DNA of 40,756 bases from an uncultured Candidatus Saccharibacteria bacterium (lineage in GTDB: Bacteria > Patescibacteriota > Minisyncoccia > JAHIHE01 > JAGLIN01). Both the position numbers and the translations under genes were made by a program. The notes beneath the pieces are model-generated. The model searched no databases. It had not been told where the DNA came from and was given only the letters and a program-made list of their open reading frames with translations. The stretch's first letter is position 1; each line of letters starts with the position of its first letter. Shown piece by piece: positions 3,634-40,661 of the stretch. The stretch lies in the NCBI GenBank assembly GCA_964412905.1, contig CAYPQL010000002.1, positions 1 through 40,756 on the forward strand, read 5' to 3'.

Positions 3634-5793
3634 CTAAACCACAATATTAACCAGCCTCCCTTTCACAAATATCACTTTCTTAATTTCTTTCCCTTCAATC
3701 CATTTTTTTACTTTCTCGCTTTCAAGGGCGAGTTTTTTGGCGTCGGTTTCGGAAATATCCGCCATAACCTTGATTTGATCGCGGAGTTTGCCGTTGATTT
3801 GGACTACTAAAATTATTTCTTTTTCTTTGGCTAATTCCGGATTATATTCAGGCCATTTTTGCAAATGAATGCTTTCTTTATTTCCCAGCGCTTCCCAAAT
3901 TTCTTCCGTGATGTGCGGGGCGAAAGGAGAAATTAGAATTAAGAATTTTGAATAATGAATTTTGGATAAATTGGTTTTTTCTCCGCCTTCGGCGGATCCG
4001 CCATAGGCGGACATTTCATTAAGCAAAATCATCAAGGCGGATAGGGCGGTATTGAATTTGAGGTTTTCAATATCTTCTGTGACTTTTTTGATTGTCTTGT
4101 GCAATAATGATTCTAATTTGGAATTTTGACATTGGATATTTGATATTGATTTGACATTTGACATTTGACATTTGACATTCAAATTCCATATCCTTTCCAA
4201 AAACCTATTCATTCCGACTAAACTAGTTGTTGACCACGGGATCGCGTCGCCGTAAGGTCCCATAAACATTTCATAAAGACGCAAAGTGTCGGCGCCATAT
4301 TTTTTTATGACATCGTCCGGGTTGACGACATTGCCGCGAGACTTGCTCATTTTTTGCCCGTCTTCCGCCAAAATCATTCCGTGCGATCGTCTTTTCGCGT
4401 AAGGTTCGGCTGTGTTTACATAGCCGAGATCAAACAAAAACTTGTGCCAAAATCTGGAATATAGCAAATGCAAAGTGGTGTGTTCCATTCCGCCGTTATA
4501 CAAATCAACGGGCATCCAATAGTCTATTAACTTTTTTGAATTTTGAATTTTGAATTTTGAATTTTGAATTTTTTGCATTGCGTATGCGAGGTAATACCAG
4601 CTTGATCCTGCCCAATTCGGCATCGTGTCCGTTTCTCGTTTGGCGTCATTTTTACAAACAGGACATTTCACATTCACCCATTTTTTAATATTAGCGAGCG
4701 GAGACTCTCCAGTATCCGTCGGCTCGTAATTTTTAACATTCGGAAGCTCCAGCGGCAAATCTTTTTCGGAAAGGGGAATGTTTTTTTCCGTGTTTACTAT
4801 TTCAAACTCCCAGCCGACAAGCCCGTTTTTTTCAATTCTACTAAGATAGTCTTTCGTAAAGCTAAAACATTTTTTAAAATCATCAAAACTTTTAATTTTT
4901 ATTTCTGGAATAATATTTTTTATTAAACTTTTTTCTTTATAAAGCTCTTCTAAATTTTTGAAATTATAGACTTTATTGATTTTGACGATTTCAAATTCTC
5001 CGGTATTTTTATTGTTAAACTTGACGAAATCTCCAATTTTAATATTTCCAAAGTATTTATTTTTTTCCTCAGGATTCAAAGCTCTGGTTTCTATGGTTTT
5101 CTTGTTCTCTATGATTTGTTTCCATATATTCTGATCATAAAAACTCAATTCGTTTTTAATTTTTAAATCTTTCAATCCGCAATTCTCGCATTTCACAATC
5201 GGAATCGGCTCGCCCCAATAATGCTGACGAGAAAAGACCCAATCACGGAGCTTGTAATTTACAGCTTTTTTGCCGAGGTTGTCTTTGGAGAGCCAGTCGG
5301 TGATTTGTTCTTTAAATTCTTGTGTTGTTAATCCGTCGAATTTCCCAGAATTTATGGCAACACCATTTTCTGTTAATGCTTTTTCGCCATTTAAAAACGC
5401 ATCCCAGAAAATTTTTAATTCTTGCAGATTTAAAAAATTATTTACTTCATCTTTTTTTATCCAAAGCCCGTCGTGGTTTTTTATCTCTTCTTTTTTTGGC
5501 TCAACAAAACTATCGTCCAATAATTCAATATAAATGCAATTTCTTTCTAAATCATGGCGATTTACATCTTTATGCGCTGCAAAAAAACGACTGTGAATTG
5601 TATTTCCAATTTTTCTCACGACGCGCATATTTTGATAGCCGGATTCTTCTTTTGATTCTCTAATAGCCGCTTCTTCCGCAGTTTCTCCTTTTTCAATGCC
5701 GCCAACAATAAAAGTTTTCCAATCATTCTTGCTTTTACTCCAATCTAAACAGAAATACTCATCTTTATTCCAGTGTTTTATTATAACATCCAC
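3634..5793 (-). CDS. leuS: leucine--tRNA ligase, C-terminal segment (in frame with the N-terminal segment, separated from it by a single TAA)
   Basis: LeuRS hallmarks: VNYKLRDWVFSRQHYWGEPIPIV, the KMSKS loop (DGQKMSKSRGN) and a C-terminal anticodon-binding region. The frame is open continuously from nt 5877 down to the tracked GTG at 5793. Confidence 0.85.
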   Translation of the reverse strand: MDVIIKHWNKDEYFCLDWSKSKNDWKTFIVGGIEKGETAEEAAIRESKEESGYQNMRVVRKIGNTIHSRFFAAHKDVNRHDLERNCIYIELLDDSFVEPKKEEIKNHDGLWIKKDEVNNFLNLQELKIFWDAFLNGEKALTENGVAINSGKFDGLTTQEFKEQITDWLSKDNLGKKAVNYKLRDWVFSRQHYWGEPIPIVKCENCGLKDLKIKNELSFYDQNIWKQIIENKKTIETRALNPEEKNKYFGNIKIGDFVKFNNKNTGEFEIVKINKVYNFKNLEELYKEKSLIKNIIPEIKIKSFDDFKKCFSFTKDYLSRIEKNGLVGWEFEIVNTEKNIPLSEKDLPLELPNVKNYEPTDTGESPLANIKKWVNVKCPVCKNDAKRETDTMPNWAGSSWYYLAYAMQKIQNSKFKIQNSKKLIDYWMPVDLYNGGMEHTTLHLLYSRFWHKFLFDLGYVNTAEPYAKRRSHGMILAEDGQKMSKSRGNVVNPDDVIKKYGADTLRLYEMFMGPYGDAIPWSTTSLVGMNRFLERIWNLNVKCQMSNVKSISNIQCQNSKLESLLHKTIKKVTEDIENLKFNTALSALMILLNEMSAYGGSAEGGEKTNLSKIHYSKFLILISPFAPHITEEIWEALGNKESIHLQKWPEYNPELAKEKEIILVVQINGKLRDQIKVMADISETDAKKLALESEKVKKWIEGKEIKKVIFVKGRLVNIVV
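4150..4177. repeat. heptamer tandem array (TTTGACA x4) inside leuS
   Basis: Direct read. On the coding strand it encodes part of NVKCQMSNVKSISNIQCQ. Degenerate 7-mers extend upstream to about 4130. Confidence 0.9.
4544..4578. repeat. heptamer tandem array (TTTTGAA x5) inside leuS
   Basis: Direct read. Encodes [14 protein letters not shown] with a 7-aa period (3 units = 21 nt). Confidence 0.9.
4780..5175 (-). other. ASCH/PUA-like domain inserted in LeuRS
   Basis: About 130 extra residues lie between the conserved KCENCG and IPLSEKDLPLELP. The segment WKQIIENKKTIETRALNPEEKNKYFGNIKIGDFVKFNNKNTGEFEIVKINKVYNFKNLEEL...GLVGWEFEIV matches the remembered ASCH pattern (G-KT-E-R ... GD ... F ... sfeel ... 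vaieF). Confidence 0.5.
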
Positions 5794-5810
5794 GACTTTT
5801 CTTTCTGTAT
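5390..5810 (-). other. Nudix hydrolase domain inserted in LeuRS
   Basis: A near-perfect Nudix box, GGIEKGETAEEAAIRESKEESGY (nt 5703-5635), fits GX5EX7REUXEEXGU. It lies between the end of the CP1/editing region ([15 protein letters not shown]) and the conserved INSGKFDGL motif. Confidence 0.75.
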
Positions 5811-5877
5811 TTTCTTTATCTTTTCTAATTTTATTTTTTCCTTCACCAATGAATAATGGCGCTACAACTTGTACAAA

Positions 5878-7122
5878 TTACAAATTATACTTCCTCGCAA
5901 ACTCCCAATCTCTTTCATCATGCGCCGGCACGGCCATAATCGCGCCAGTGCCGTAACTCGCTAAAACATAATCCGCGACCCAGACTGGAATTTCTTCTCC
6001 GCTTGCGGGATTAGTTGCCTTAATTCCTTTCAATTCCACTCCCGTTTTTTCTTTCGCCAAATCAGTTCTGTCCAAGTCGGATTTGTTTTTCGCCTGCTCA
6101 ATATACTTTTCAACTTCATCGTAATTTGTAATTTGTAATTTGTAATTTGTAATTAGCTCGTGTTCCGGAGAAATAACCATATAAGTGCAACCGAATAAAG
6201 TATCCGGACGGGTGGTAAATACTTCTACGAAGAATTTTGAATTTTGAATTTTGAATTTTGAATTTATTTGATATTTGGAATTTGATATTTGGAATTTTAT
6301 CACCGCTCCTTCCGATTTGCCAATCCAATTAACTTGTTGTGTTTTGATTTTATCCAAATAATCAACCGTATCCAAATCTTTAATTAGTCTGTCCGCGTAT
6401 TTTGTGATGCGGAGCATCCATTGCTTCATTGTTTTTTTCTCCGCTTTAGCATGGCACCTTTCACATTCGCCCCCGACAACTTCTTCATTGGCTAATCCGA
6501 TTTTGCAGCTTGGGCACCAGTTTATAGACATCCTGGCTTCATAGGCTAATCTGCGCTCGTCAATATATTTATTTACGGAGCTCAACTCCGAGGCTTCGGA
6601 GCTAAGCTCCTTGTCTTTTTCTAAATCTTTCGGAATTTCCAACTCTTCAATCGGCCGCGCTTTATCCAGTTTCTCATCATAAAAACTATTGAATAATTTC
6701 AAAAAAATCCACTGCGTCCACTTGTAATATTCAGGATCAGTGGTGTTTATTTCCCGCGACCAATCAAAACTCGGGCCGTAGCTTTTGATCTGGCGAGTGA
6801 AATTTTTGACATTGTTTTTTGTGACGATTCTGGGGTGCGTCTTTGTCTTAATCGCGAAATTCTCCGTCGGCAATCCGAAAGCGTCCCAGCCGATCGGATA
6901 CATCACATTATATCCGCTCATTCGCTTTTTCCGCGCGACAATATCAATGGCGATATGGCTTCGCAAATGCCCCACATGAAGCCCCGCGCCAGAAGGGTAG
7001 GGGAATTCAATTAGGCAATAATACTTCGGCTTTTTTGAAAAATCCTCAGCACTATAAATCCCGCTCCTATCCCATTCCTTCTGCCACTTTTTCTCAATTT
7101 TCTTCGGATTGTATTTTTGCAT
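5878..7122 (-). CDS. leuS: leucine--tRNA ligase, N-terminal segment (ends at an in-frame TAA, 5880-5878)
   Basis: HIGH motif ([10 protein letters not shown]), a zinc-knuckle region ([13 protein letters not shown]), and editing-domain motifs TTRPDTLFG and [16 protein letters not shown]. Confidence 0.9.
6122..6156. repeat. heptamer tandem array (TAATTTG x4 plus one variant) inside leuS
   Basis: Direct read. Encodes [10 protein letters not shown]. Confidence 0.9.
6232..6298. repeat. compound tandem array (GAATTTT x4-5, then TTTGATATTTGGAA x2) inside leuS
   Basis: Direct read. Encodes [23 protein letters not shown]. Confidence 0.9.
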
Positions 7123-7136
7123 AGATATAATTTTTA

Positions 7137-7370: not shown

Positions 7371-7406
7371 AATTTTTAAATTAAAAATTAAAATATTAAA
7401 ATGAAT

Positions 7407-8409: not shown

Positions 8410-10068
8410 GCGCGGGAACAAGCTCTCGCCTTTTTTTATTTTCGCGCCATGTTTCAATCCGCCCCATTTTTGCGCTTCGGTTAAAGTTTTAGATAATTCT
8501 ACAGCCCTTTCTTTTCCGTCCGCAAACAATTGCGTAAATATTTTATCCGAAGTTTCGGGCATAAACGGGCGAATCATCCATGCGATATGGCGCAAGCTTT
8601 CTAGCAAATTATAAATCACTTTCGCTTTATCTTCCCCTTCCATCTGCCACGGCTTATTTTTTTCAATATATTCATCGCAACTGCTCATAAATTTTCTTGT
8701 CATTTCCAAAGCCTCGTTTAGTTTGAAATTATTTAAGGACTTTTCATAATCCAGCCAAGCATTTTTAATTGTAGTCTCAAATTCTAAATTTCCAATTTCC
8801 AATTTCCAATTTCCAATTTCTATTTTCTCCGCCATCGCCAAAACCCTTGCCGTTAAATTCCCCAGCCCGTTCGCCAGATCTGCTTGATAGATTTCCTCAA
8901 ATCTTTCGTAGGAAAAATCGCCGTCTCCGCCGGAGGGAATTTCTTTGAGGAGAAAATATCGCAAAGCGTCAACGCTTTTATATTTATTAACAACTTCAAA
9001 CGGATCAACAACATTGCCGATGGACTTGCTCATTTTTTGCCCGCCGGAAGTTATAAATCCGTGGACGAATATTTTTTTAGAGAGAGGCAGTTTCGCCGAT
9101 AAAAGCATCGCCGGCCAAATTGCGGCGTGAAATCTCAAAATATCTTTTCCGATTAAATGGATGTCTGCTGGCCAGTATTTTTGGAAATTAACTTGATTAT
9201 CAGACTGTTTAGGAATTGTCATTTCGAGCCCTCGCGAGAAATCTGAATTTTTAGAAATATCTGCGATTTTAGATTTCTCGCTGATGCTCGAAATGACAGG
9301 ATTTTTATTTTTCGCATAGTCTGGATTATCTCCATAACCCAGCGCGGAAATATAATTTGTAAGGGCGTCGCACCAAACATACATTGTCTGAGTTTCGTCG
9401 TCTGGAACCGGCACGCCCCAATCTAAAACGGTTTTGGACCTTGAGAAACTAATGTCTTTCAAGCCGATTTTAACAACATTAAGTATCTCATTTTTTCTGG
9501 ACTCCGGAACAATTTTCAATTCGTCGGATTCTATGAGTTTTTGAATTTTGTCCGAATATTTAGAAAGCTTAAAAAAATAATTTTCTTCCTTGATTTTCTC
9601 TGGCGCTTTTTGATGATTTGGGCAATTGCCATTAATCAAATCTTTTTCAGTGATATATTCCTCGCAGCCAACGCAATAATATCCTTCATAATTTGATTTA
9701 TAAATATCTCCCGCTTCAACAAGCTTCTTCCAAATTTTTTGCGCCGCCGGCCAATGGCGGATTTGATCGGTAGTTCTGATAAAATCGTCATTGGAAACAT
9801 TAAGCCTGTCCAATAACTCTCTGAACTTTACCGAATTTTTATCTACAAAATCCTGCGGCGCCATTTTATTTTTCTCCGCGGTTTTTTTTATTTTTGTGCC
9901 GTTTTCATCTGTTCCCGACAAAAAGAAAACATCCTCGCCAAGCAACCTATGGAACCTCGCCAAAACATCCGCCTGCAAAATTTCCAAAGCATACCCAATA
10001 TGCGGCGCGGCATTGGCATACGCGATTGAAGTGGTTATGTAGAATTTTTTTTGTTTAGGGGTTGACAT
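8401..10068 (-). CDS. metG: methionine--tRNA ligase
   Basis: HIGH-type motif (AAPHIGYALE), KMSKS (GGQKMSKSIGN), a CxxC..CPNH knuckle, and WPADIHLIGKDILRFHAAIWPAML. Confidence 0.93.
   Translation of the reverse strand: MSTPKQKKFYITTSIAYANAAPHIGYALEILQADVLARFHRLLGEDVFFLSGTDENGTKIKKTAEKNKMAPQDFVDKNSVKFRELLDRLNVSNDDFIRTTDQIRHWPAAQKIWKKLVEAGDIYKSNYEGYYCVGCEEYITEKDLINGNCPNHQKAPEKIKEENYFFKLSKYSDKIQKLIESDELKIVPESRKNEILNVVKIGLKDISFSRSKTVLDWGVPVPDDETQTMYVWCDALTNYISALGYGDNPDYAKNKNPVISSISEKSKIADISKNSDFSRGLEMTIPKQSDNQVNFQKYWPADIHLIGKDILRFHAAIWPAMLLSAKLPLSKKIFVHGFITSGGQKMSKSIGNVVDPFEVVNKYKSVDALRYFLLKEIPSGGDGDFSYERFEEIYQADLANGLGNLTARVLAMAEKIEIGNWKLEIGNLEFETTIKNAWLDYEKSLNNFKLNEALEMTRKFMSSCDEYIEKNKPWQMEGEDKAKVIYNLLESLRHIAWMIRPFMPETSDKIFTQLFADGKERAVELSKTLTEAQKWGGLKHGAKIKKGESLFPRLI
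8791..8825. repeat. heptamer tandem array (TCCAATT x4 plus one variant) inside metG
   Basis: Direct read. Encodes EIGNWKLEIGNLE on the coding strand. Confidence 0.9.
9217..9298. repeat. palindromic MITE-like element, family A, inside the metG reading frame
   Basis: TGTCATTTCGAGC..GCGAGAAATCT..AGATTTCTCGC..GCTCGAAATGACA. It is translated in frame as PVISSISEKSKIADISKNSDFSRGLEMT, just upstream of the conserved YWPADIHLIGKD block. Confidence 0.85.
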
Positions 10069-11051: not shown

Positions 11052-11079
11052 AAATTAGAAATTGGAAATTAGAGATTGG
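11052..11079. repeat. heptamer array (AAATTAG/AAATTGG x4) abutting the rsmI start codon
   Basis: Direct read. It is followed by CAACTACT x2 (11081-11096). Confidence 0.85.
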
Positions 11080-11121
11080 GCAACTACTCAACTACTCTAA
11101 AAAACATTTATCCTAAAAATC

Positions 11122-11207
11122 TGTCATTTCGAACGCCTCGTGAGAAATCTAAGCGTTATAGAAATATCTAAAGTTTATAGATTTCTCGCTAATCGCTCGA
11201 AATGACA
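11122..11207. repeat. palindromic MITE-like element, family A
   Basis: TGTCATTTCGAAC..GTGAGAAATCT..AGATTTCTCGC..GCTCGAAATGACA. Intergenic. Confidence 0.85.
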
Positions 11208-11240
11208 AAAAAGGCGAGTAGTTGCGAAATCGGTAATGTT

Positions 11241-13993: not shown

Positions 13994-14037
13994 CTTTTCT
14001 CCTCCTTTTTAATTAGTTCTCGTTGAAATAATTTATT

Positions 14038-14122
14038 TGTCATTTCGAGCATGTCGCGAGAAATCTATAATCTTTAGATATTTCTACATGCTCAGATTTC
14101 TCACGATGCGTTCGAAATGACA
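14038..14122. repeat. palindromic MITE-like element, family A
   Basis: TGTCATTTCGAGC..GCGAGAAATCT..AGATTTCTCAC..GTTCGAAATGACA. Intergenic. Confidence 0.85.
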
Positions 14123-14360
14123 GGACGATAGGACTATTTTAACAAGAGCTAATCAAAATCCAAAAGGCCGGAAACTAGCAGTTTCTAAATGATACGAACT
14201 ACAGACTTTGCTGCTATTATTTTTACATAATAGCGAGGAGAGAGTTTTGCAAAACATATAGCCCGATTAGAATACCGCTAATTATCCGACCTTTTGGATG
14301 CAATGTATAACGGCTAATTGTATCAACATTATAGATGTTTTTTACGGTTTGTCAATAATA

Positions 14361-16588
<2,228 letters not shown>

Positions 16589-16597
16589 GGATTAGTT

Positions 16598-16638
16598 AAA
16601 AGTTTATAAAGTTATAAAGTTATAAAGTTCATAAAGTA
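16598..16638. repeat. 8-mer tandem array (ATAAAGTT-type) directly after the gyrB stop
   Basis: Direct read. It uses the same unit family as the arrays upstream of gyrB. Confidence 0.85.
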
Positions 16639-16678: not shown

Positions 16679-16706
16679 CCCGGATGAAATTTATCCGGGA
16701 TTTTTG
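16679..16706 (+). terminator. intrinsic terminator
   Basis: Stem CCCGGAT / ATCCGGG with a 7-nt loop, followed by ATTTTTG. Confidence 0.7.
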
Positions 16707-18011: not shown

Positions 18012-18059
18012 GATTCATATAAACATTTTAACAATACAGCAATTTAGCAATTTAATAAA

Positions 18060-24570: not shown

Positions 24571-24586
24571 TTTGTTTAAATAACAC

Positions 24587-25948: not shown

Positions 25949-25978
25949 GAGGAAGAAAAAAATAAAAATCAAACCGTA

Positions 25979-27544: not shown

Positions 27545-27551
27545 GTTTTAT

Positions 27552-29180: not shown

Positions 29181-29333
29181 CAGTAATTTAGATGTAATTT
29201 TAATAACAAGCGCTTGTTATAAAGGAAAACCGGTTATTAAATTAGATGTAAATATAACAAATCATCAATGGTTATAAAATGATAATTTTAATGTTTTTTA
29301 TAAATAAACCTTTAAAATAATTTTTTAATAATT

Positions 29334-31826
29334 ATGCCGAGAAAAAAAACAATACTGCCGGTAACTGCCGCATCGGTTAAATCTTATAAACACAAAAATA
29401 AGCGTGTTCGCATTCCGACACAAGAAGAATCGATCAAACTTTCGGCGCGCGAGAAACAACCGGTTAAAACAAAATATGATTATGATCCGTCGCTGGATCC
29501 GCAATTAATTTGGGCCGGCAAAAAAGAGCAAGGCGCGGAATTGGCTGTGCCGACCGTGCCGATTTATGTGCAGGAAAAAATCGCGCCGGAGGCGATTATC
29601 GCGCGCCTAAAGCAGGGGACAAAAGAAGAAACCCAGTATTCTCTTTTTGGCGAAACGGCGCAAGAGCAGTTTGATAAAACAATAGAATTTTATAAGCATG
29701 AGGATAATTGGCAAAACCGTATGATTCTGGGCGATTCACTTTTGGTAATGAATAGCTTGCTGGAAAAAGAAGGTATGCGCGGACGGGTACAGATGATTTA
29801 TATTGATCCGCCATATGGAATCAAGTTTGGCTCTAATTGGCAGGTTTCCACGAGAAAACGGGATGTGAAAGATAATAAGCTGGAGGACTTTATTCGCCAA
29901 CCGGAACAGGTTAAGGCCTTTCGCGATACTTGGGAATTAGGTATTCATTCTTATCTTTCTTATTTGCGCGATCGGCTTTTAGTTGCCCGCGAGCTTCTAA
30001 CTGAAGGCGGAAGTTGTTTTGTGCAGATAAGCGATGAAAATGTGCATTTGGTCAGGAATTTAATGGATGAGGTATTTGGAAGTAATAATTTTGTAAGTCA
30101 AATTACATTAAAACGGGCTTCGGTTATGTTTACTAAAAAATATATAAAAAGCGATGTTTATTATGTTGTTTGGTTTGCAAAAGACATTGATCATTTGAAG
30201 TATCGCCAAATATACAAAGAACAAACCTTACAAGAATTTGCGGATAGCTCAGGTTCACATTTGTGGTTTGAGGAAGCAAATACAAAACAATGTACTAAAG
30301 CAACGCCAGAACAAAGGAAAAACATCGAAAAATATTTAAAAAATAATCCATCCCTAATTCCATTTTCGACACTTGGATTGAATGCCCAGGGCATAGAAAA
30401 ACAAAAACCTTTTAATTTTAAAGGGAAAGATTATTTTCCTCCAAAGGGGACTCAGTGGAAAAGCTCCTATATTGGCTTACAAAAATTGGTTGATATCGGA
30501 AGACTAATTATCGAAGGAAATAATATTAGATATAAATATTACCACAAAGATTATCCTGTTAGTGAAATGGGGAATTATTGGGAATCAATAGGCGCACCGG
30601 GAGATAAAATATATGTTGTTCAAACAAGCGAAGAAATTAATCGGCGTTGTATTTTATTAACAACCGATCCGGGCGATTTGGTTTTAGACCCGACTTGCGG
30701 CTCCGGAACGACTGCTTTTGTCGCCGAGCAGTGGGGTAGGCGATGGATTACCATTGATACTTCTCGCGTTTCTTTGGCGTTGGCGCGCACACGACTAATG
30801 ACGGCTAAATTTTCATGTTATAAACTCAAAGATAGACATAGCGTTTCAGCCGGATTTGAATATAAAACCGTGCCGCATGTGACTTTAAAATCTCTCGCCA
30901 ATGATGAGCCGGCGGAGCGGGAAGTTTTATACGATCAGCCGTTTGAAAATAAAGATATTGTTCGCGTGTCTGGTCCGTTCACGGTTGAATCTCTTTCGCC
31001 GCATCGAGTTTCCGACGCGCAAGAAATGCTTTCTTCCGAGCGATTTGTGGAAACGATTGTCAGTAATCTTTTGAAATCCGGCGTACAAACCGGTGAAAAA
31101 GGCGCGCGGGTGGAATTTGTAAATCTGGATATTTTGCCGAGTGGCCCGGAAGTGCAGGCCGTCGGAGAATATAAAACTAATGACGGATTGAAAAAAGTCG
31201 CGGTTTCTATTGGCCCTGAATTTGGCAGTATTGACGATGATTTCATTCGCGATGCCTCCACTATTGCCAAGAAATTCGCCGATCTTCTCGTAATTGCCGC
31301 TACATCTTTTGAAGCATCGGCGTTTTCCGAGCCGACACAAGTCAATGGTTTGCAAATAATGAAAGTAAAAATCAACCCGGATTTGTCTATGGGCGATTTG
31401 CTTAAAAAAACCAGCTCTGGCAATTTATTTATCGCCTTTGGCGAGCCGGAAGTGAAAATTAAAGAAACAAAAGATGGCGTGACGGTGGAAATTGTCGGCG
31501 TGGATATTTATGATCCGGTAAAAAGCGAAATTCGTTCTAGTGGCTCTGGCGATCCGGAACATGAAATTGCCGCATGGTTTATTGATACCAATTACAATAA
31601 AGAAGCGTTTTTTGTAACTCATGCCTACTTCTTGGGCGCTAATAAGCCGTATGAGAAACTAAAAAAAGCGCTGAAAGCCGATATTGACGAGGCTGCGTGG
31701 GAAGAATTATATTCCACAATTTCCCGACCGTTTGCAAAACCAAAAACCGGCAAAATCGCTGTGAAAGTTATCAATCATTATGGCGATGAAGTTATGAAAA
31801 TTATTGAAATTAAACAAGGGAGGTGA
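29334..31826 (+). CDS. mod: Type III-like DNA methyltransferase Mod (beta-class N6A/N4C MTase)
   Basis: Motif IV (IYIDPPYG) lies upstream of motif I (LDPTCGSGTTAFVA), which is the beta permutation typical of Mod. N-terminal DPSLDPQLIWAGK...PIYVQEKI is typical of the family partnered with this Res type. Confidence 0.88.
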   Translation: MPRKKTILPVTAASVKSYKHKNKRVRIPTQEESIKLSAREKQPVKTKYDYDPSLDPQLIWAGKKEQGAELAVPTVPIYVQEKIAPEAIIARLKQGTKEETQYSLFGETAQEQFDKTIEFYKHEDNWQNRMILGDSLLVMNSLLEKEGMRGRVQMIYIDPPYGIKFGSNWQVSTRKRDVKDNKLEDFIRQPEQVKAFRDTWELGIHSYLSYLRDRLLVARELLTEGGSCFVQISDENVHLVRNLMDEVFGSNNFVSQITLKRASVMFTKKYIKSDVYYVVWFAKDIDHLKYRQIYKEQTLQEFADSSGSHLWFEEANTKQCTKATPEQRKNIEKYLKNNPSLIPFSTLGLNAQGIEKQKPFNFKGKDYFPPKGTQWKSSYIGLQKLVDIGRLIIEGNNIRYKYYHKDYPVSEMGNYWESIGAPGDKIYVVQTSEEINRRCILLTTDPGDLVLDPTCGSGTTAFVAEQWGRRWITIDTSRVSLALARTRLMTAKFSCYKLKDRHSVSAGFEYKTVPHVTLKSLANDEPAEREVLYDQPFENKDIVRVSGPFTVESLSPHRVSDAQEMLSSERFVETIVSNLLKSGVQTGEKGARVEFVNLDILPSGPEVQAVGEYKTNDGLKKVAVSIGPEFGSIDDDFIRDASTIAKKFADLLVIAATSFEASAFSEPTQVNGLQIMKVKINPDLSMGDLLKKTSSGNLFIAFGEPEVKIKETKDGVTVEIVGVDIYDPVKSEIRSSGSGDPEHEIAAWFIDTNYNKEAFFVTHAYFLGANKPYEKLKKALKADIDEAAWEELYSTISRPFAKPKTGKIAVKVINHYGDEVMKIIEIKQGR

Positions 31827-32212
31827 TTAAAATTTATAATTAAATCTATTTTTAGATAATAATTAGTGTGCAACTTTGCCCCCTATTGCTAGGCGCTTTC
31901 GTTTGTTTTGTAATGATAATGCGCAAGTTATTGCGCGATAAAATATAAAAGTGAAGCATAATAAAACAACAGATGCGCGCCTCGGCTTATCACTTGAATA
32001 AATTTTGTTTAGTCGTCAATAAAAATTTATAATCCGTAGCAAGAGAACACCTCGTGGTGTTTTTAAAGACACGCAGAGTGTTCGCAATTTTTATGTTTTT
32101 TCTTTACAAATAATATCAATAGTGGTATTTTATCTATGTGCCGTGGAAAAACACACGGGGAGATAAATATAATTCATCTCAATAACTTTAAGTAAAATAA
32201 TCATACTAAATC

Positions 32213-33934
32213 ATGAAATTTTCTAAATATTTTTTAAAAACTGCCAAAAATGTATCCAATGAAGATAAAAGCGTTTCAGCAAAACTTCTTAAACAGGGCG
32301 GATTTATTCGCGAATCCGTTGCCGGGCGCTATTATTTCCTGCCTATTGGGCAGAAAGTACAACAAAAAATAATGCAAGTTATAAAGGAAGAAATGGATTC
32401 TGCGGGGGCGCAAGAAATGGTCACGCCAATTTTACATCCGTTGGAATTATGGAAAGAAACGAACAGAATCAATACTGCCGGTTTTGAGCTAATGAAAGTT
32501 AAAGATCGCCGGGGCGCGGAATTTGCTTTGGGCGGCACTGCGGAAGAAATGTTCGTTGATCTGATTCGCCAATATAAATTAAGTTACCGCGATTTGCCTT
32601 TTCAGATTTATCAATTTTCGCCGAAGTTTCGCGATGAATTGCGCGCTCGCGGAGGATTGCTTCGGGTACGGGAATTTATAATGAAAGACGGTTATTCATT
32701 TCATAAAGACGAAGAAGATTTTAAAGTTGAGTATGAAAAAATGAAAAAGGTTTACACTAGAATATTCGACCGGCTAGGTTTAAAAACTTCTATTGTAGAA
32801 TCTGATAACGGATATATCGGCGGAGAATATTGCCATGAGTTTATTGTTGAGTCAGAAATTGGAGAAAGCGCTTATTTTATCGCGGAAAAAGGTGAATATG
32901 CCGCGCACGAAGATATTGCCGTATTTAAAAAAGAGATTAAGAATAAGGAGGAGGTACAGCAGTTATTGAAAGAGGTTGATGCTGAACGAGGGGCGACAAT
33001 GGAAGACGGGGTTAAATTTCATAAATTACCTCTTTGGCAACAGATCAAAGACGTTCTCTTTGTGGATGATAAAAAAAGATTTATTCTGGCAATTATCAGA
33101 GGTGATTTTGATGTGAATGAAGTTAAATTAAAAAATCTTATTAAATCGACCACACTAAGACATGCAACAGATGAAGAGATTAGAGAACAAATTAAATCAG
33201 AACCGGGTTTTATTTCTCCGGTCGGAATTAAAAAAGGAATTGATAAAAATGTTGAGCTTGTTATTGCAGCTGATGATTCCTTAAGAACAATCGCCAATGC
33301 TTATGGCGGAAGCAATAGGAAAAACAAGGATCTTTTGAATGTGAATATTGATAGAGATTATGAGCCGGATATGGAAGGTGACATTGCTTTAGCAAAAGCC
33401 GGATATGAAGCGCTTGGCAGCGCGGGTAAGCTGTTTGAAAAATGCGGGATTGAAGTTGGAAATATTTTTCAACTTGGATATCATTACTCAAATAAAATGA
33501 AAGGCGCTGTTTATATTAACGCGGAAGGGAAGGAAAAGCCATATTATATGGGTTCTTATGGAATTGGCATTGGGCGAACAATGGCGGCTATTGTTGAAAA
33601 ATATAACGACCAAAACGGCATCATCTGGCCGAAATCAATCGCGCCGTATCAAGTTCATTTGATTTCTTTGGGCGGCGATGAAGCTGTTATAAAAGAATCG
33701 GAAAAGATATATGATTCTTTACAAAAGGAAAAAATTGAAGTATTATATGACGACCGCGACGAATCGGCGGGAATAAAATTCAAAGACTCGGATTTAATCG
33801 GAATTCCGCTTAGAATCGTGGTTAGCAAGAAGACCATGGAGAAAAATAACGTTGAAATAAAAAGAAGAGACAAAGATAATTCTGAACTTGTTAAAATTAG
33901 CGATTTAATAAATTTTTTAGAGAAAAATAAATAA
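32213..33934 (+). CDS. proS: proline--tRNA ligase (bacterial type, intact)
   Basis: Class II motifs (FRDELRARGGLLRVREFIMKDGYSF; GSYGIGIGR), an internal insertion domain and a C-terminal anticodon-binding domain. Length 573 aa. Confidence 0.92.
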   Translation: MKFSKYFLKTAKNVSNEDKSVSAKLLKQGGFIRESVAGRYYFLPIGQKVQQKIMQVIKEEMDSAGAQEMVTPILHPLELWKETNRINTAGFELMKVKDRRGAEFALGGTAEEMFVDLIRQYKLSYRDLPFQIYQFSPKFRDELRARGGLLRVREFIMKDGYSFHKDEEDFKVEYEKMKKVYTRIFDRLGLKTSIVESDNGYIGGEYCHEFIVESEIGESAYFIAEKGEYAAHEDIAVFKKEIKNKEEVQQLLKEVDAERGATMEDGVKFHKLPLWQQIKDVLFVDDKKRFILAIIRGDFDVNEVKLKNLIKSTTLRHATDEEIREQIKSEPGFISPVGIKKGIDKNVELVIAADDSLRTIANAYGGSNRKNKDLLNVNIDRDYEPDMEGDIALAKAGYEALGSAGKLFEKCGIEVGNIFQLGYHYSNKMKGAVYINAEGKEKPYYMGSYGIGIGRTMAAIVEKYNDQNGIIWPKSIAPYQVHLISLGGDEAVIKESEKIYDSLQKEKIEVLYDDRDESAGIKFKDSDLIGIPLRIVVSKKTMEKNNVEIKRRDKDNSELVKISDLINFLEKNK

Positions 33935-33987
33935 TAGATATTGGATGTTTGAAGTATTATCTTAAATTACAAAATGCTATTTTAGTT

Positions 33988-34100
33988 TGTCATCTCGAAA
34001 TGAGCATCAGCGATTGAGAGATCTAAAAGCTATATTTAAATCAACCGTTCTTTCCGTATTCTATTGTTCATAGATTTCTCGCGACACGCTCGAAATGACA
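33988..34100. repeat. palindromic MITE-like element, family A (longer, degenerate copy)
   Basis: The left end TGTCATCTCGAAATGAGC is degenerate. The right end AGATTTCTCGCGACACGCTCGAAATGACA is canonical. Confidence 0.65.
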
Positions 34101-34170
34101 AATATGTTATTTCGTAATTCAAAGATATTAGATATTATTTTTTTTACTGTAATTAAAAGAAATTATTATC

Positions 34171-34210
34171 TTAATATCCAATTATCCAATTATCCAATAT
34201 TAATATCCAT
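34171..34210. repeat. 8-mer array (TATCCAAT x3 plus variants) abutting the mreB start
   Basis: Direct read. It is the complement of the GATATTGG-type arrays at 18837 and 33937. Confidence 0.85.
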
Positions 34211-36664: not shown

Positions 36665-38537
36665 AAACAGAAAAGCTCTTGATATGGAAGAGTTTTTTTT
36701 AGACTCCGCGGCCAAGGACGGCGGCAGCATTGAGATTCCTTTGGACGATAAAAACATAAAAACATTCAAAAAAATATTTTTTCTTATTTTACTGGCGCTT
36801 GTTCTTCAAGCGGCGTATTTGCAAATAATAAAAGGAGAGCGTTACGCGGAGATTTCGGAAAATAATTATAAAAGAGCCGTTGCCATAAAATCTCCGAGAG
36901 GAATAATCTATGACAAATTCGGCAAGCAAATCGTTTATAATGTGCCGATTTTTGATCTCGTTATCATCCCGTCTGATTTTCTGAAAGATAAAAACAGCGT
37001 GAAGCAAAAAACGGAAAAGCTTTCCGAAATAACTGAGATGCCTAAAGATAATTTGGAAGATCAGATTAATAAGATGGACGGATTTTCATATCAGCCGGTT
37101 CTGGTTTTGGGGAATATAGAAAAAGACAAAGCGCTGATCATGGAAGAAAAGATAAAAGGAATTGACGGAGCGGAGCTTGAAAAAAACGCCGGACGAAATT
37201 ATATTGATGGCGAATATGTTTCAAACATAATAGGCTATAGCGGCAGAATAAATGAAACTGAATTAGAAAATTATCCCGGATATTTTCTTACTGATACGAT
37301 AGGAAAAGACGGGCTGGAATTGTTTTATGAAAAACGGCTCAGAGGGGAGTATGGGAAAGAAGAAATTGAAGTGGATTCTTTCGGGAAAAAAATAAGGACG
37401 GTAAAAAAAGAAGACCCTGTTTCCGGTGGTAATTTGATTTTGAATATGGATTTTGAATTGCAGAAAAAAATATATAATGAGCTGGAAAAAGTTATCACGG
37501 AAATCAAAACCGGAGCGGGAGCTTCCGTTGTTGCCATAAATCCGAAAAACGGCGCGGTTCTGGCGCTGGTTAATTTTCCTTCTTACGACAATAATCTTTT
37601 CGCAAAAGGCATAAGTTTCGGTGATTATAATAAATTGCTGAACGATAAAACCAGCCCGCTTTTTAATCGTTCAATTGCCGGGGAATATCCGCCGGGATCA
37701 ACTTTCAAAATGGCGGTCGGCGCCGGCGTTTTGCAGGAAAAAATTATATCTCCCAATTATAAAATAATTGATAAAGGGGTAATTTATGTCGGATCCTATT
37801 CTTTTTTGGGCTGGAAAGCGCTGGGCGCGGTTGATTTTATAAAGGCGGTTTCCCAGTCTTCCAATATTTATTTTTATACGGTCGGCGGAGGATACGGCGA
37901 AATAGAAGGACTGGGAGCTGAGAGAATTAAAAAATACGCGAAATTGTTCGGGTTTGGAAGCGCGCTGGGCATTGATCTTCCCGGAGAAAAATCGGGGCTT
38001 GTTCCGAACGAACAATGGAAAAAAGACACTAGAAATGAAATATGGTATATCGGAGACACTTATCATATGTCAATCGGACAAGGCGATGTTTTGGCGACCC
38101 CCCTTCAAGTCGCAAGCTATATCGCCGCGATTGCCAACGGCGGAAAATTATTTCAGCCGCAAGTGGTTGACAAGGTTATAGATTCTGAGGGAAATATAAT
38201 TGAAGACATAAATCCGAAAATAATCAGGGAAAATTTCATAGACGCGTTCAATTTGGAATGGATTCAAAAGGGAATGAGAGAAAATGTCGCGTCCGGTTCC
38301 GGAATAGCGCTCAAAGATTTGCAGTTTGAAGTTGCCGGAAAAACCGGAACCGCGCAATATTACGGCAATCAAAAAACGCATGCCTGGTATGTCGCATACG
38401 CTCCTTACAACGATCCTGAAATCGCTTTGGCAATTATAGTTGAAGGCGGAGGAGAAGGCCACACCACCGCCGTGCCGATCGCGAAGGAAGTTTTGAGGTG
38501 GTATTTTGAAACTAGGAAATTAGAAATTAGAAATTAG
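36636..38537 (+). CDS. mrdA: penicillin-binding protein 2 (elongasome transpeptidase)
   Basis: STFK (PPGSTFKM), SxN (SQSSN) and KTGT (AGKTGTAQ) motifs, plus an N-terminal TM anchor. The last residues (RKLEIRN) are encoded by a heptamer array. Confidence 0.92.
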   Translation: MKKDYFIKNKNRKALDMEEFFLDSAAKDGGSIEIPLDDKNIKTFKKIFFLILLALVLQAAYLQIIKGERYAEISENNYKRAVAIKSPRGIIYDKFGKQIVYNVPIFDLVIIPSDFLKDKNSVKQKTEKLSEITEMPKDNLEDQINKMDGFSYQPVLVLGNIEKDKALIMEEKIKGIDGAELEKNAGRNYIDGEYVSNIIGYSGRINETELENYPGYFLTDTIGKDGLELFYEKRLRGEYGKEEIEVDSFGKKIRTVKKEDPVSGGNLILNMDFELQKKIYNELEKVITEIKTGAGASVVAINPKNGAVLALVNFPSYDNNLFAKGISFGDYNKLLNDKTSPLFNRSIAGEYPPGSTFKMAVGAGVLQEKIISPNYKIIDKGVIYVGSYSFLGWKALGAVDFIKAVSQSSNIYFYTVGGGYGEIEGLGAERIKKYAKLFGFGSALGIDLPGEKSGLVPNEQWKKDTRNEIWYIGDTYHMSIGQGDVLATPLQVASYIAAIANGGKLFQPQVVDKVIDSEGNIIEDINPKIIRENFIDAFNLEWIQKGMRENVASGSGIALKDLQFEVAGKTGTAQYYGNQKTHAWYVAYAPYNDPEIALAIIVEGGGEGHTTAVPIAKEVLRWYFETRKLEIRN

Positions 38538-38549
38538 AAATTGGAGATG
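38515..38549. repeat. heptamer array (GAAATTA/TAGAAAT x4-5) spanning the mrdA stop
   Basis: Direct read. Same unit family as the arrays at 11052-11079 and (in complement) 8791-8825. Confidence 0.9.
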
Positions 38550-38590
38550 AAAAATAATAAATTATCTTGAATTGCGAAATGAGTTGAAAG

Positions 38591-38675
38591 TGTCATTTCG
38601 AGCACCTTGCGAGAAATCTGTATGCGGGAGAAATATCTAAAGTTTATAGATTTCTCGTTGATACTCGAAATGACA
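38591..38675. repeat. palindromic MITE-like element, family A
   Basis: TGTCATTTCGAGC..GCGAGAAATCT..AGATTTCTCGT..ACTCGAAATGACA. Intergenic. Confidence 0.85.
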
Positions 38676-38704
38676 AATTTTATTTAGATAAAATATTATA
38701 TCTT

Positions 38705-39085
38705 ATGAACACTCACGAACAAAATTGCGAACAGATATTTTGCAGGGCGTGCCAGGTTTTGAAACTTGACGGTTTTTCGTTTAAGCCGAAAGTGATCAGG
38801 GCGGGGGACGGGTACGTGAGGAACTATAAGTTGGGTTATACAAACTTGAAATCAAAACTTGTCGTGGTTGACATATACACGCAAAAGACGAAGAAGCAAA
38901 AAAAATACAGCGGCATTCTGGCTGTAATCGCGCACGAGCTGGCGCATCACCAGAAAAAGCCCTATCGCCAATTTTATAAATTTCGCTGGATAAACCGCAT
39001 TCACTATCCCGAATTTTACGAGCGGGTGACGAAAAATATTGAGAAGTTTAAAAAGGATGAATTGCTGAGGCAGCTTTATGAATAA
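38705..39085 (+). CDS. small HExxH protein (YgjP/SprT-like metallopeptidase fold suspected)
   Basis: AVIAHELAHH followed by H..EFY..V resembles the DUF45/YgjP signature. N-terminal Cys pair (CEQIFCRAC). Confidence 0.6.
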   Translation: MNTHEQNCEQIFCRACQVLKLDGFSFKPKVIRAGDGYVRNYKLGYTNLKSKLVVVDIYTQKTKKQKKYSGILAVIAHELAHHQKKPYRQFYKFRWINRIHYPEFYERVTKNIEKFKKDELLRQLYE

Positions 39086-39096
39086 AATAAAATAAA

Positions 39097-39134
39097 TTTT
39101 CAATTTTCAATTTCTAATTTTCATTAAATTTTCA
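39097..39134. repeat. heptamer array (TTTTCAA-type) abutting the mnmA start
   Basis: Direct read. Confidence 0.85.
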
Positions 39135-40253
39135 ATGAAACAATTTTCAAATAAAAAAAAAGTAATTGTGGGAATGTCGGGGGGAGTGGATTCTGCGGTG
39201 GCGGCGATATTGCTTAAAAATCAAGGCTATGAAGTCGCGGGGGTTTTTATGCATTTTTGGCATGATGTCGCGGATAAGCTGGAAAATATTGATATGCGTA
39301 TAGAAAATAAATGTTGCAGCCGCGAGGCGGAGGAAAGCGCGAGGAAGGTGGCGCAGAAGCTGGGGATTAAATTTTACTCCGTCAATGTTTCCAAAGAATT
39401 TAAGAAAGCTGTCGTGGATTATTTTCTTGATGAATATAATTCTGGCAGAACGCCAAATCCGTGCGTGGAATGCAATCGTGAAATTAAGTTTGGCATAATG
39501 ATAGACAAAGCATTGGCGATGGGCGCGGATTATGTGGCGACGGGACACTATGTCAGAAAACTAAAAACTAAAAACGAAAAACGAAAAACGGTTTATAAAT
39601 TGCTAAAAGCTAAAGACGCAAATAAGGATCAGTCGTATTTTCTTTATACTCTAACTCAAAAGAAATTGAAGCATTGCTTGTTTCCGATAGGGGATTATAC
39701 AAAGACGGAAGTTAGGGAAATGGCTAAAAAATACAAACTTGAAATTCACGACAAAAAAGAGAGTCAAGAAATTTGTTTTATCCAAACAAAATATTACGGA
39801 GATTTTTTGAGGAAATATCTGAAATTAGTTCCGGGGAAAATAGTTGATAAAAATGGCAATATGTTAGGAGAACACAAAGGACTGCCTCTTTACACAATCG
39901 GACAGAGAAGAGACATCGGAATCGGCGGAACCGGGCCGTATTATGTGGTTGGAATGAACCGCAGAAAAAATCAGCTTATCGTAAGCGATAATATAAATGA
40001 TAAAAATTTATTTTCAAAAGAGCTTATTGCCAAAAAAGTAAATTGGATTTCGGGAAACATTCCTAATTTCCCTCTTAAAATAAAAGCAAAAGTAAGATAT
40101 AGAATGAGCGAAGAATTTGCGGTTGTAGATAAAATCAAAGAAAAATACGCAATAAAATTTTTAAAACCCCAGCGCGCGGTTATGCCAGGACAATCAATTG
40201 TTTTTTATAAAGGAGACGAGCTGTTTGGCGGAGGGATTATAGAAAAGCGATAA
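39135..40253 (+). CDS. mnmA: tRNA 2-thiouridine(34) synthase MnmA
   Basis: PP-loop (VIVGMSGGVDSAVAA), NPCVECNREIKFG and DQSYFLY. Confidence 0.93.
   Translation: MKQFSNKKKVIVGMSGGVDSAVAAILLKNQGYEVAGVFMHFWHDVADKLENIDMRIENKCCSREAEESARKVAQKLGIKFYSVNVSKEFKKAVVDYFLDEYNSGRTPNPCVECNREIKFGIMIDKALAMGADYVATGHYVRKLKTKNEKRKTVYKLLKAKDANKDQSYFLYTLTQKKLKHCLFPIGDYTKTEVREMAKKYKLEIHDKKESQEICFIQTKYYGDFLRKYLKLVPGKIVDKNGNMLGEHKGLPLYTIGQRRDIGIGGTGPYYVVGMNRRKNQLIVSDNINDKNLFSKELIAKKVNWISGNIPNFPLKIKAKVRYRMSEEFAVVDKIKEKYAIKFLKPQRAVMPGQSIVFYKGDELFGGGIIEKR
39557..39591. repeat. heptamer array (AAAACTA x2, AAAACGA x2, AAAACGG) inside mnmA
   Basis: Direct read. Encodes KLKTKNEKRKT. Confidence 0.9.
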
Positions 40254-40327: not shown

Positions 40328-40507
40328 ATGTCAGAACCAAAGATTGACAAAGAAAATGCGCAAAGGATTACTAGAAATATTTTAGCAGAGGCTGAAAGAA
40401 GAAGAGGGGAACAAAAAAAGGAACATAATCTTCAAGTAAAATATGAGGGAGAAAAAAGAAGATCGGAAATGCTAGGTAGATTTATTGAAGTAATTCAAGG
40501 AGTTTAA
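40328..40507 (+). CDS. small basic/helical hypothetical protein (59 aa)
   Basis: Below the ORF-track cutoff. SD TAGGAGAG lies about 8 nt upstream of the ATG, and a clean terminator follows the ORF. Confidence 0.55.
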   Translation: MSEPKIDKENAQRITRNILAEAERRRGEQKKEHNLQVKYEGEKRRSEMLGRFIEVIQGV

Positions 40508-40543
40508 TTTTAAATGTTTGTTTTAAAATAACCAAAGCAAACG

Positions 40544-40570
40544 AAAGGACAAAAGTCCTTTATTTTTTTA
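40544..40570 (+). terminator. intrinsic terminator
   Basis: Stem AAAGGAC / GTCCTTT with loop AAAA, followed by ATTTTTTTA. Confidence 0.75.
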
Positions 40571-40614
40571 TTTATTTAGGCTATAATGGGTTTGTTGCGG
40601 ACAGTGCAATAATA

Positions 40615-40661
40615 TACTTAATACTTAATACTTAATACTTAATACTTAATACTTAATACTT
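40615..40661. repeat. heptamer tandem array (TACTTAA x6-7) running into the alaS ATG
   Basis: Direct read. The last unit overlaps the start codon (TACTTATG). Confidence 0.92.

Follow-up and report, generated by a model that had tools for sequence, protein, structure and literature searches.

Tandem heptamer arrays at gene boundaries and within genes of a Candidatus Paceibacterota contig

What are the short AT-rich tandem repeats that stand against the start and stop codons of so many genes in a 40,756-nt stretch of DNA (contig CAYPQL010000002.1, hereafter the window) from a Candidatus Paceibacterota bacterium? The genomes closest to the window are metagenome-assembled genomes (MAGs) of Candidatus Paceibacterota/Patescibacteria, whose RRF is 73-81% identical to its own; an exact match to that RRF was found in none of the public assemblies. 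Patescibacteria account for a very large, almost uncultured share of bacterial diversity and their expression signals are poorly known. A conserved class of 7-nt repeats that fills spacers and recurs across the class would offer a handle on how genes are marked or coupled in reduced genomes. The arrays described here are probably working elements rather than chance or junk, and our tentative answer, to which we give a little less than an even chance, is that they are products of slippage and template switching, many of which have been kept by selection as stem-forming junction elements.

Non-random arrays of period seven at gene boundaries

Tandem Repeats Finder (TRF) returned 84 rows for the window, among which 16 of period 7, five of period 8 and three of period 9 had a score of at least 38 and at least three copies. 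By contrast with these 16 period-7 rows, Markov shuffles of order 1, 3 and 5 gave means of 0.01-0.03 each and never more than one. The arrays also qualify as long simple sequence repeats (LSSRs) in the sense of Mrazek, a class whose units of 5-11 nt are repeated beyond the expectation from base composition. The first-pass annotation of this DNA had proposed that heptamer and octamer arrays abut start and stop codons across the window, and every site that it named is indeed present by TRF and direct reading, two of them weakly. The tract past the proS stop exists, although it consists of only ~2 imperfect units for which TRF makes no call, and the repeat at the Schlafen gene is real but has a period of 10 and 2.2 copies (29167-29188), and is not a heptamer array. 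Coding sequence makes up 87.7% of the window; nonetheless, 13 of 23 curated arrays are mostly intergenic (12% non-coding DNA, binomial p = 5e-7), so that the proposed non-random placement holds. Most of the intergenic ones lie 0-6 nt from a start or stop codon, and those of rsmI, map, rseP, mreB, mnmA and alaS, 0-6 nt before the ATG, are start-proximal heptamer repeats proper. Nine further arrays, on which the annotation was silent, lie inside open reading frames (ORFs; six in leuS and one each in metG, femAB and mnmA), and a tenth, at the annotated gyrB start, overlaps the ORF by 55%.

The same period prevails among relatives. In 495 kb of Paceibacteria loci collected around frr, leuS and the small gene 38705-39085 (individual loci or contigs of other genomes carry L-numbers below), non-overlapping best arrays numbered 86 for period 7, 18 for period 8, nine for period 9 and at most four for any other period. 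In control loci obtained with the same query from Acidobacteriota and Myxococcota (1.14 Mb), period 7 was 14 times rarer per base and the spectrum was broad, with multiples of three dominant. Distant relatives (marker protein 40-54% identical, GC 43-55%) also have arrays, patchily; L002 has none in 20 kb. Units have a GC content of 22%, and 40% of them contain an AATT core as opposed to 8% of random 7-mers. Dozens of different units exist overall, some of which form recurrent families, such as AAAATTC (nine arrays in eight genomes) and AAGTATT (seven arrays). In several genomes, and at loci that are not orthologous, an element built on AGTATTA, which in L071 forms a compact hairpin of ~80 nt, retains both its inner AAGC/GCTT end and its variant third unit. 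The units had been called locus-specific, a description that does not hold strictly, given this recurrence of the same families at non-orthologous loci of other genomes. Viral contigs contained 11 matches to AGTATTAAGTATTAAGC, 10 of them lacking any repeat context and falling in apparent phage genes, including two recurring sequences; the match in L127 runs on into a short tandem repeat, and the search offered no lead.

The annotation had further remarked that genes preceded by arrays lack a Shine-Dalgarno (SD) sequence. They do, but so do 29 of the 32 genes listed for the window; because only three of the 32 have an SD-like motif, the contrast is not meaningful, and we rejected SD presence as a feature distinguishing array-bearing from other genes, SD lack being genome-wide. 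Strong SDs do precede the small ORFs 8272 (plus), 10114 (plus), 13993 (minus) and 40328 (plus), as had been noted; ORF 8272, which is not in the list of 32, looks like a small membrane peptide and overlaps the 3' end of metG on the opposite strand.

Inverted pairs bracket spacers between stop and start codons

Many arrays are paired in inverted orientation. At eight loci, 19 of 69 arrays had an inverted partner within 1 kb (ungapped score of at least 14) versus one with a direct partner, so that the pairing does not simply follow from a small vocabulary of units. When all Paceibacteria loci were searched more widely, 30 pairs were listed, with gaps from 10 to ~1,100 nt, mostly 10-100. In the window, the array past the frr stop, (AGTATNA)4, faces the one before rseP, (TAATACT)4, over 34 nt at 85% complementarity and across a 100-nt loop. 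The other pairs there consist of two arms upstream of gyrB, the gyrB 5' arm with the gyrB 3' array, proS 3' with mreB 5', mrdA 3' with mnmA 5', the metG internal array with rsmI 5', and two tracts internal to leuS. In most co-directional pairs the first arm begins 0-6 nt past the upstream stop, or contains it, and the second terminates 0-10 nt before the downstream ATG. Predicted folds of the paired spacers have free energies of -28 to -52 kcal/mol (z-scores -3.5 to -8) with AT-rich stems of 25-35 bp, closing loops that vary in length and frequently contain a nested GC hairpin or a palindromic miniature inverted-repeat transposable element (MITE). The layout outlasts the units themselves: at the proS-mreB junction, the window and L001/L005 use different unit families in the same inverted arrangement, and at frr-rseP the family of L001 differs from the others while the pair is kept. 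The suggestion that the arrays are unstructured AU-rich translation leaders is thus hard to sustain, since an array before a start usually has its reverse complement past the preceding stop and the intervening spacer folds at the z-scores given above; the start-proximal arm may nevertheless act as a leader.

Directly next to the pair upstream of gyrB, the minus strand has a promoter of perfect consensus, TTGACA-16-TATAAT (14355 to 14328). This pair probably lies between two predicted divergent promoters, given that the conserved N-terminus of GyrB begins at 14537; beyond that consensus promoter, promoter and terminator scans of the window were not informative. The annotated gyrB start is at 14438 and the likely true one at 14537, and the GC skew switches sign near 14 kb. 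A rule by which the purine-rich or the pyrimidine-rich arm always comes first fits the window but fails in L001 (mreB/mreC), L103, L106 and L112, and was rejected.

Arms are conserved while synonymous sites are near saturation

Orthologous intergenic regions were compared among relatives, as had been advised: arms are 81-100% identical while loops diverge. Four-fold-site identity between the window and L003 is 0.39 in frr and 0.41 in rseP; it is 0.32 between the window and L005 in frr, and 0.44 between L001 and L005 in mreB. These sites are near saturation, since 0.32-0.44 is close to the composition floor that we estimate for such AT-rich genomes (~0.34). Against this background, the frr/rseP arms are 81-88% identical across the window, L003 and L005, with the variant third unit in common, and the second mreB arm with its short leader is the same in L001 and L005 at 41 of 41 positions (44 columns in a separate alignment), while the loop and the third positions of flanking codons have diverged in the same alignment. 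The octamer array (TAACATNT)n 3' of rseP is common to L001, L005 and, in degenerate form, L004, and 30 nt of the array 3' of mrdA are identical in the window and L076. The trend extends to coding arrays, the synonymous third positions of the leuS arrays being identical between the window and L069 at 57 of 64 sites versus 45.4 expected from the same amino acids elsewhere in leuS, outside the arrays. The start-proximal arm is the better conserved half. From these comparisons we infer that the arms are under purifying selection at the nucleotide level, because the substitution rate between species is not reduced by concerted evolution, be it inside one array or from arm to arm.

Arrays within genes and a template-switch signature in leuS

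The arrays of leuS, metG and mnmA are translated in frame and are free of stops, except for one small leuS tract that creates a TAA. Because a 7-nt unit is read in all three frames, they encode repeats of seven residues, such as KIQNSKF and ITNYKLQ. The five perfect leuS and metG arrays contain no stop on the sense strand, whereas reading the antisense strand would run into stops in four of the five. Annotation pipelines should thus expect 7-nt units written into essential enzymes as 7-residue peptide repeats. The LeuRS gene (3634-7122, minus strand) accommodates a variety of other material: the window protein has a NUDIX domain in the region of the editing domain and a second insert of ~130 aa, and LeuRS proteins of relatives (840-1370 aa) contain NUDIX, RdgB/HAM1, alpha/beta-hydrolase-type or ASCH-like inserts, variously. 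At 4125-4179 other relatives have the RdgB/HAM1 domain, at 4534-4572 L069 carries a different insert, a GC hairpin, and at one LeuRS site some homologues have arrays, others a translated palindromic element and others nothing.

Counting the terminal stop, leuS spans 1,163 codons in a single frame that is interrupted once, by an in-frame TAA at 5878-5880 (minus strand), where database LeuRS homologues are uninterrupted and have Pro, Glu or Asn. At this site the window reads TAATTTGTA, L069 CCGATAAAA and L071 GAGATAAAG, corresponding to the codons AAT TTG TAA TTT GTA, AAT TTG CCG ATA AAA and GGG TTG GAG ATA AAG, respectively. Nine nucleotides have been replaced with no change in length, generating (AATTTGT)2.3, which is reverse-complementary to the (AAATTAC)4.9 array located 230 nt upstream. 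As judged from the aligned sequences, this replacement is a quasipalindrome template-switch signature (PMC7202029, PMC8604942). The TAA itself may reflect a genuine nonsense change, variation within the population or read-through; template switching can break the genes of essential enzymes, and this too is something that annotation pipelines should expect. The perfect (AAATTAC) array of the window and L069 aligns codon for codon with a degenerate period-7 tract in L071, and since that ortholog is degenerate in the same register, the array is old and has been homogenised without net change in length. Elsewhere units and copy numbers do differ: the mnmA 5' array of the window differs by two units from that of L076, and at an internal mnmA site the window has (AAAACKA)n and L076 a GC hairpin followed by (AAATCCC)4. 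The idea that the arrays are footprints of a repeat-spreading process therefore survives in part: the leuS template switch and the different units at the mnmA site speak for it, but many arrays must be more than footprints because they are strongly conserved. Two independent assemblies of a relative that are 99.99% identical over 11 kb (L069 and L070) share 13 short-repeat tracts with no copy-number difference, a weak test given that they are near-clonal.

A second such event may have affected another aminoacyl-tRNA synthetase gene, alaS, in which a 27-nt inverted repeat (40424-40450 / 40730-40756, 96% complementary) has one arm in the small ORF 40328 and the other overwriting alaS codons 25-32, with a TGA at codon 29, where the window ends.

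Palindromic elements occur besides the arrays. A GC-rich double hairpin (TCCGCC-NNNN-GGCGGA, two copies) at 3982-4011 is in frame in leuS and translated as ...GGSAEGG...; similar ones are found at different sites in L069 leuS, between ATTTCCAGTTTC direct repeats, and in L076 mnmA. A palindromic MITE-like family of ~85 nt (TGTCATTTCGAGC...GCTCGAAATGACA) has copies at 9217-9298, 11121-11212, 14033-14123, ~33995-34125 and ~38585-38690. The first corresponds to a 31-aa in-frame insert in MetRS relative to L071, and the others adjoin, or lie between, array arms; downstream of mrdA, L076 carries a different MITE family.

Comparison with known repeat systems

The arrays are neither intrinsic terminators nor CRISPRs, in agreement with the first-pass annotation. 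Intrinsic terminators have a short GC-rich stem, a loop of 3-8 nt and a U-tract, whereas the paired arrays give AT-rich stems of 25-35 bp with arm gaps of 10 to ~1,100 nt, and none of nine terminator-like sites in the window falls on an array (the nearest, 16679-16699, is ~40 nt downstream of the gyrB 3' array, and the number of such sites matches that in shuffles). CRISPR repeats are ~23-55 nt long and separated by unique spacers, whereas here units of 7-9 nt follow each other head to tail. Mrazek et al. 2007 reportedly surveyed LSSRs of 5-11 nt, and Mazel et al. 1990 are said to have described the heptamers known as short tandemly repeated repetitive (STRR) sequences of cyanobacteria, whose units include CCCCAGT, TTGGTCA and CAACAGT. 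LSSRs and STRRs resemble the arrays in the dominance of heptamers, in being scattered, mostly non-coding and not linked to phase-variable genes, and in the slippage origin proposed for them. They differ in that STRR units are fixed and contain GC, so that period and intergenic bias match but units do not, and in that those studies are not known to describe the hairpin geometry of a stop arm and a start arm or conservation past synonymous saturation. We know of no LSSR- or STRR-type report from Patescibacteria, and literature searches returned no report of such arrays from this group.

A close parallel is offered by the TAACTGA repeats of marine Beggiatoaceae, some Cyanobacteria and Bacteroidetes (MacGregor 2015, PMC4679880). 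Like the arrays, they are tandem heptamers in two to six or more copies, mostly intergenic and a few nucleotides upstream of starts, in genomes where SDs are rare, with occasional copies inside ORFs; the arrays bear on a thirty-year-old question, the role of bacterial heptamer repeats. However, Beggiatoaceae use the single unit TAACTGA with one indirect repeat reported, whereas here dozens of AT-rich units fall into a few recurring families, a large share of them form reverse-complement pairs bracketing a spacer, and conservation across species is demonstrated. Neither the window nor its closest relatives contain a TAACTGA array, and the unit of one L088 array, AACTGAT, is a rotation of it.

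REP/BIME, REPIN and Correia/ERIC-type MITEs are likewise short extragenic inverted repeats at junctions that form hairpins, dispersed families and nested insertions, with known effects on mRNA stability, processing or termination (PMC3116915, PMC10969869). The arms described here differ in being tandem-periodic and very AT-rich, and they occur at divergent junctions as often as at other types. Inverted doublets and dispersed families are present, but no RAYT (TnpA_REP) gene was seen in the annotated loci, which cover fragments of 2-40 kb per genome, and a search by eye for target-site duplications around the inspected pairs, whose inverted arms are evident, revealed none. Quasipalindrome template switching produces clustered same-length changes complementary to a nearby repeat, as at leuS 5872-5887, but it is a mutational mechanism rather than an element class and explains the origin of a partner, not its conservation (PMC7202029, PMC8604942). 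Finally, Rickettsia palindromic elements (palindromes of 100-150 bp; PMC10969869) and Borg repeats (direct repeats that are perfect and evolve fast, with unit lengths divisible by 3 nt inside genes; PMC9879509) also insert or expand in frame within genes, including essential ones, and give short peptides at tolerant sites. The arrays, by contrast, are old and their 7-nt unit is read in all three frames. Among the closest described phenomena, namely the TAACTGA repeats, LSSRs, STRRs and REP/REPIN-type hairpins, none combines many unit families, pairing of stop and start arms, and conservation past synonymous saturation.

Origin and possible function of the arrays

We propose that AT-rich heptamer tracts, less often octamers and nonamers, make up a repeat system across the Paceibacteria. 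Replication slippage in 7-nt steps would create, resize and homogenise the tracts and thus presumably set their period, and short-range template switching would copy them in inverted orientation, an origin largely documented by the comparisons above. The products are then filtered, so that in spacers arms adjoin the stop codon of the preceding gene and the start codon of the following one, and within genes arrays occupy insertion-tolerant sites, almost all in frame and stop-free. At several junctions both arms stay almost the same, presumably under selection, as the loop drifts and takes up nested MITEs. The arms would act by pairing as an AU-rich stem of 25-35 bp, either in the transcript or in single-stranded or extruded DNA, and it is as a stem that selection would keep them. 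Such a stem would close the spacer, give the upstream stop and the downstream start region a constant setting and shield expression from the content of the loop, or else may couple the flanking genes.

Several observations weigh against this proposal. Conservation is seen as sequence identity and not as covariation, which fits a factor that reads the sequence equally well as a stem, and mismatches between arms on the sense strand (30 G:U versus 25 A:C) lack a wobble bias, so that there is no positive sign of selection for pairing at the RNA level. The share of junctions with arrays is 14% for co-directional, 15% for convergent and 12% for divergent ones, equal frequencies that argue against a role specific to coupling within operons, and the placement of the gyrB-upstream pair likewise counts against a simple RNA-coupling function. 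For about two thirds of the arrays no partner was detected. Moreover, arms decay independently (the first in the window, the second in L005) or are missing, with one arm lost in L004 and no arm present in L002, which indicates that the elements are dispensable.

Some of these points are what would be expected if the arrays were purely mutational or selfish by-products, harmless and without function, arising by slippage, perhaps in a lineage poor in mismatch repair, and by fold-back or template switching. The indifference to junction type, the absence of a G:U bias, the decayed or missing arms in some relatives, the arrays inside essential genes, one of them producing a premature stop, and the greater length of array-bearing spacers (151 nt, versus 62 nt without arrays), as insertions would cause, all agree with it, and heptamers are reportedly the commonest class of long simple sequence repeats in many bacteria, for which polymerase slippage has been invoked (Mrazek 2007, as summarised in PMC4679880). 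We consider it unlikely all the same, because neutral DNA cannot stay identical at 41 of 41 or 81-88% of positions when four-fold identity is 0.32-0.44, the loop between the arms does diverge, and synonymous sites in coding arrays are over-conserved. Conservation of sequence instead of covariation, indifference to junction type, the reappearance of a few families at non-orthologous loci of many genomes (AAAATTC in eight genomes, AAGTATT in seven arrays) and the low GC and frequent AATT core of the units would be accounted for by a putative protein that reads tandem heptamers on DNA or RNA, with inverted pairs as symmetric or bridged binding sites. Candidates include a nucleoid-associated or minor-groove reader of A-tract DNA and a cold-shock-domain or S1-type protein on leader RNA; for the Beggiatoaceae repeats just upstream of starts, binding of S1, Csp or CsrA has been proposed (PMC4679880). 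This is a live alternative but a rather improbable one, as dozens of units are too many for one sequence-specific reader, no candidate protein has been identified, and arm complementarity, which binding does not need, is strongly enriched. Also live, and more doubtful, is the view that the inverted pairs are mobile palindromic elements (MITE, REPIN or foldback-like) with heptamer-periodic terminal inverted repeats and an enzyme encoded elsewhere. The non-periodic details that the AGTATTA element keeps at non-orthologous loci of several genomes and the other MITEs nested in loops recommend it, REPINs being inverted repeat doublets as well (PMC3116915), but the inspected pairs showed no target-site duplication by eye, the loci read contain no linked transposase or RAYT gene, many arrays are unpaired or unique in unit, and orthologous persistence past synonymous saturation would be unusual for MITEs.

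The suggestion that the arrays are slippage-prone contingency tracts, whose copy number would switch or tune adjacent genes by phase variation, is very improbable. Heptamer repeats upstream of the Haemophilus hmw genes do act in this way (PMC8262952, PMC12721329), and the window and L076 differ by two units at one junction. Yet the flanking genes are core housekeeping ones (leuS, metG, gyrB, map, frr, rseP, mreB, mrdA, mnmA and alaS), in-gene arrays are in frame, unit and copy number are kept between species near synonymous saturation, and two (near-clonal) assemblies of one population showed no difference. An assembly or sequencing artefact, which the metagenomic origin of the window and the premature stops next to repeats in two aminoacyl-tRNA synthetase ORFs might bring to mind, has a practically negligible probability, as the same arrays occupy orthologous sites in independent MAGs and metagenome contigs of other studies and protein sequences of database homologues match the in-gene arrays. 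Selectively retained junction stems of slippage and template-switching origin thus seem to us the best explanation. A bolder version, to which we allot a modest chance, would make these stems a dedicated, conserved cis-signal of gene junctions in the SD-poor Paceibacteria, read by a trans-acting factor, with the 7-nt period and AATT core mirroring a mechanism of writing or reading (for example, staggered-nick duplication or a binding domain with a heptamer footprint) and not generic slippage. One candidate for this factor is the ribosome itself, which would pass from the stop to the following start by way of the stem base, much as in ribosome shunting but in a prokaryote; another is a protein that measures tandem 7-nt units.

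Catalogue of arrays and genomic context

The arrays and tracts of the window are listed in Table 1.

Table 1. Tandem arrays and related tracts in the window (coordinates in nt; TRF, Tandem Repeats Finder).
Feature	Position	Strand	Basis or remark
Imperfect (AAAATTC)-type array in leuS 3' part	3928-3970	-	TRF period 7/14
(TGTCAAA)n array in leuS, translated as NVKCQMSNVKSISNIQCQ	4125-4179	-	TRF; near-identical in L069
Perfect (AAAATTC)5.6 array, 39 nt, in frame in leuS	4534-4572	-	TRF
(AATTTGT)2.3 tract holding leuS in-frame TAA (5878-5880); inverted partner of 6121-6154	5872-5887	-	Comparison with L069, L071
Perfect (AAATTAC)4.9 array in leuS	6121-6154	-	TRF
(AAAATTC)4.9 and 14-mer repeats in leuS	6232-6297	-	TRF; insertion hot spot in LeuRS homologues
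(AAATTAA)3 array, 5 nt past tatD stop	7378-7402	.	TRF
(GGAAATT)n array in frame in metG; reverse complement of rsmI 5' array 2.2 kb away	8787-8827	-	TRF, pair search
(TAATTTC/CAATTTC)n array, 1 nt from rsmI ATG	11052-11079	-	TRF, direct reading
(CAACTACT)2.1 at 11081-11097 and inverted partner 11216-11237, either side of palindromic MITE 11121-11212	11081-11237	.	TRF, pair search
Inverted pair (ATAAAGTTC)n / (GAACTTTAT)n, arm gap 27 nt, upstream of gyrB	14355-14460	+	Free energy (dG) -36.1, z -7.8
(ATAAAGTT)5.4 array, 6 nt past gyrB stop, complementary to 14419-14464	16594-16637	+	TRF, pair search
Degenerate (ATTATGA)6 array in frame in FemAB-family gene	17211-17256	+	TRF; variant units avoid stop codons
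(TTTAGCAA)3.5 array, 6 nt before map ATG; weak, 75% matches	18027-18054	+	TRF
(GATATTRG)3.8 array across map stop	18830-18858	+	TRF
Arm 1, (AGTATNA)4-AGC, starting 2 nt past frr stop	21909-21938	+	TRF, pair search, fold
Arm 2, GC(TTAATAC)n, ending ~3 nt before rseP ATG; reverse complement of frr 3' arm	22041-22070	+	z -4.4; 88% identical to L003
Decamer (TTAGCAGTAA), 2.2 to ~3 copies, across stop of Schlafen/AlbA_2 gene	29167-29197	+	TRF; not a heptamer
Weak (GATATTGG)-type tract directly past proS stop; partner of 34175-34209	33937-33961	+	Direct reading
(TATCCAAT)3-4 array, ending 4 nt before mreB ATG; MITE between array and partner	34175-34209	+	TRF
(GAAATTA)4+ array supplying mrdA last codons and stop	38516-38564	+	Identical over 30 nt in L076
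(AATTTTC/AATTTCT)n array adjoining mnmA ATG; inverted partner of 38516-38564	39095-39136	+	L076 has two extra units
(AAAACKA)4.9 array in frame in mnmA	39557-39590	+	TRF
Perfect (ATACTTA)7 array, last unit overlapping alaS ATG	40614-40662	+	rseP-arm family; no partner in the window

The window is a housekeeping region in which Pfam matches identify leuS, tatD, metG, rsmI, an AI-2E transporter and an M16 peptidase on the minus strand and gyrB, FemAB, map, holB, a BNR protein, frr, rseP, proS, mreBCD, mrdA and mnmA on the plus strand. No Rfam family matched the window at its gathering threshold, and a tRNA scan of the window found none. Gene order is common to the window and its nearest relatives, except for an island of ~8 kb between rseP and proS that is present in the window, and synteny departs from that of the relatives downstream of mnmA, on the alaS side. 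The island, within 24093-33934 and lacking in relatives, encodes a ResIII helicase, a restriction-endonuclease-like protein, the Schlafen/AlbA_2 protein and an N6/N4 DNA methylase. The small orf24093 is a 66-aa N-terminal remnant of the ancestral proS, and the present proS has a foreign 5' part that includes an editing domain.

Between mrdA and mnmA, the gene 38705-39085 encodes a conserved protein of 126 aa that contains an HExxH motif and has no match beyond a weak PepO-like one; it always occupies this position in close relatives, and here an array pair brackets it. Perfect palindromes of 24 nt in the holB-BNR spacer (20041-20089) and of 19 nt just 3' of rseP (23205-23244) are non-repetitive hairpins that may be terminators. 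Finally, orf23149 contains a 33-nt unit in 3.4 copies (23365-23475, 87% matches), which translates into an 11-residue protein repeat unrelated to the heptamer arrays.

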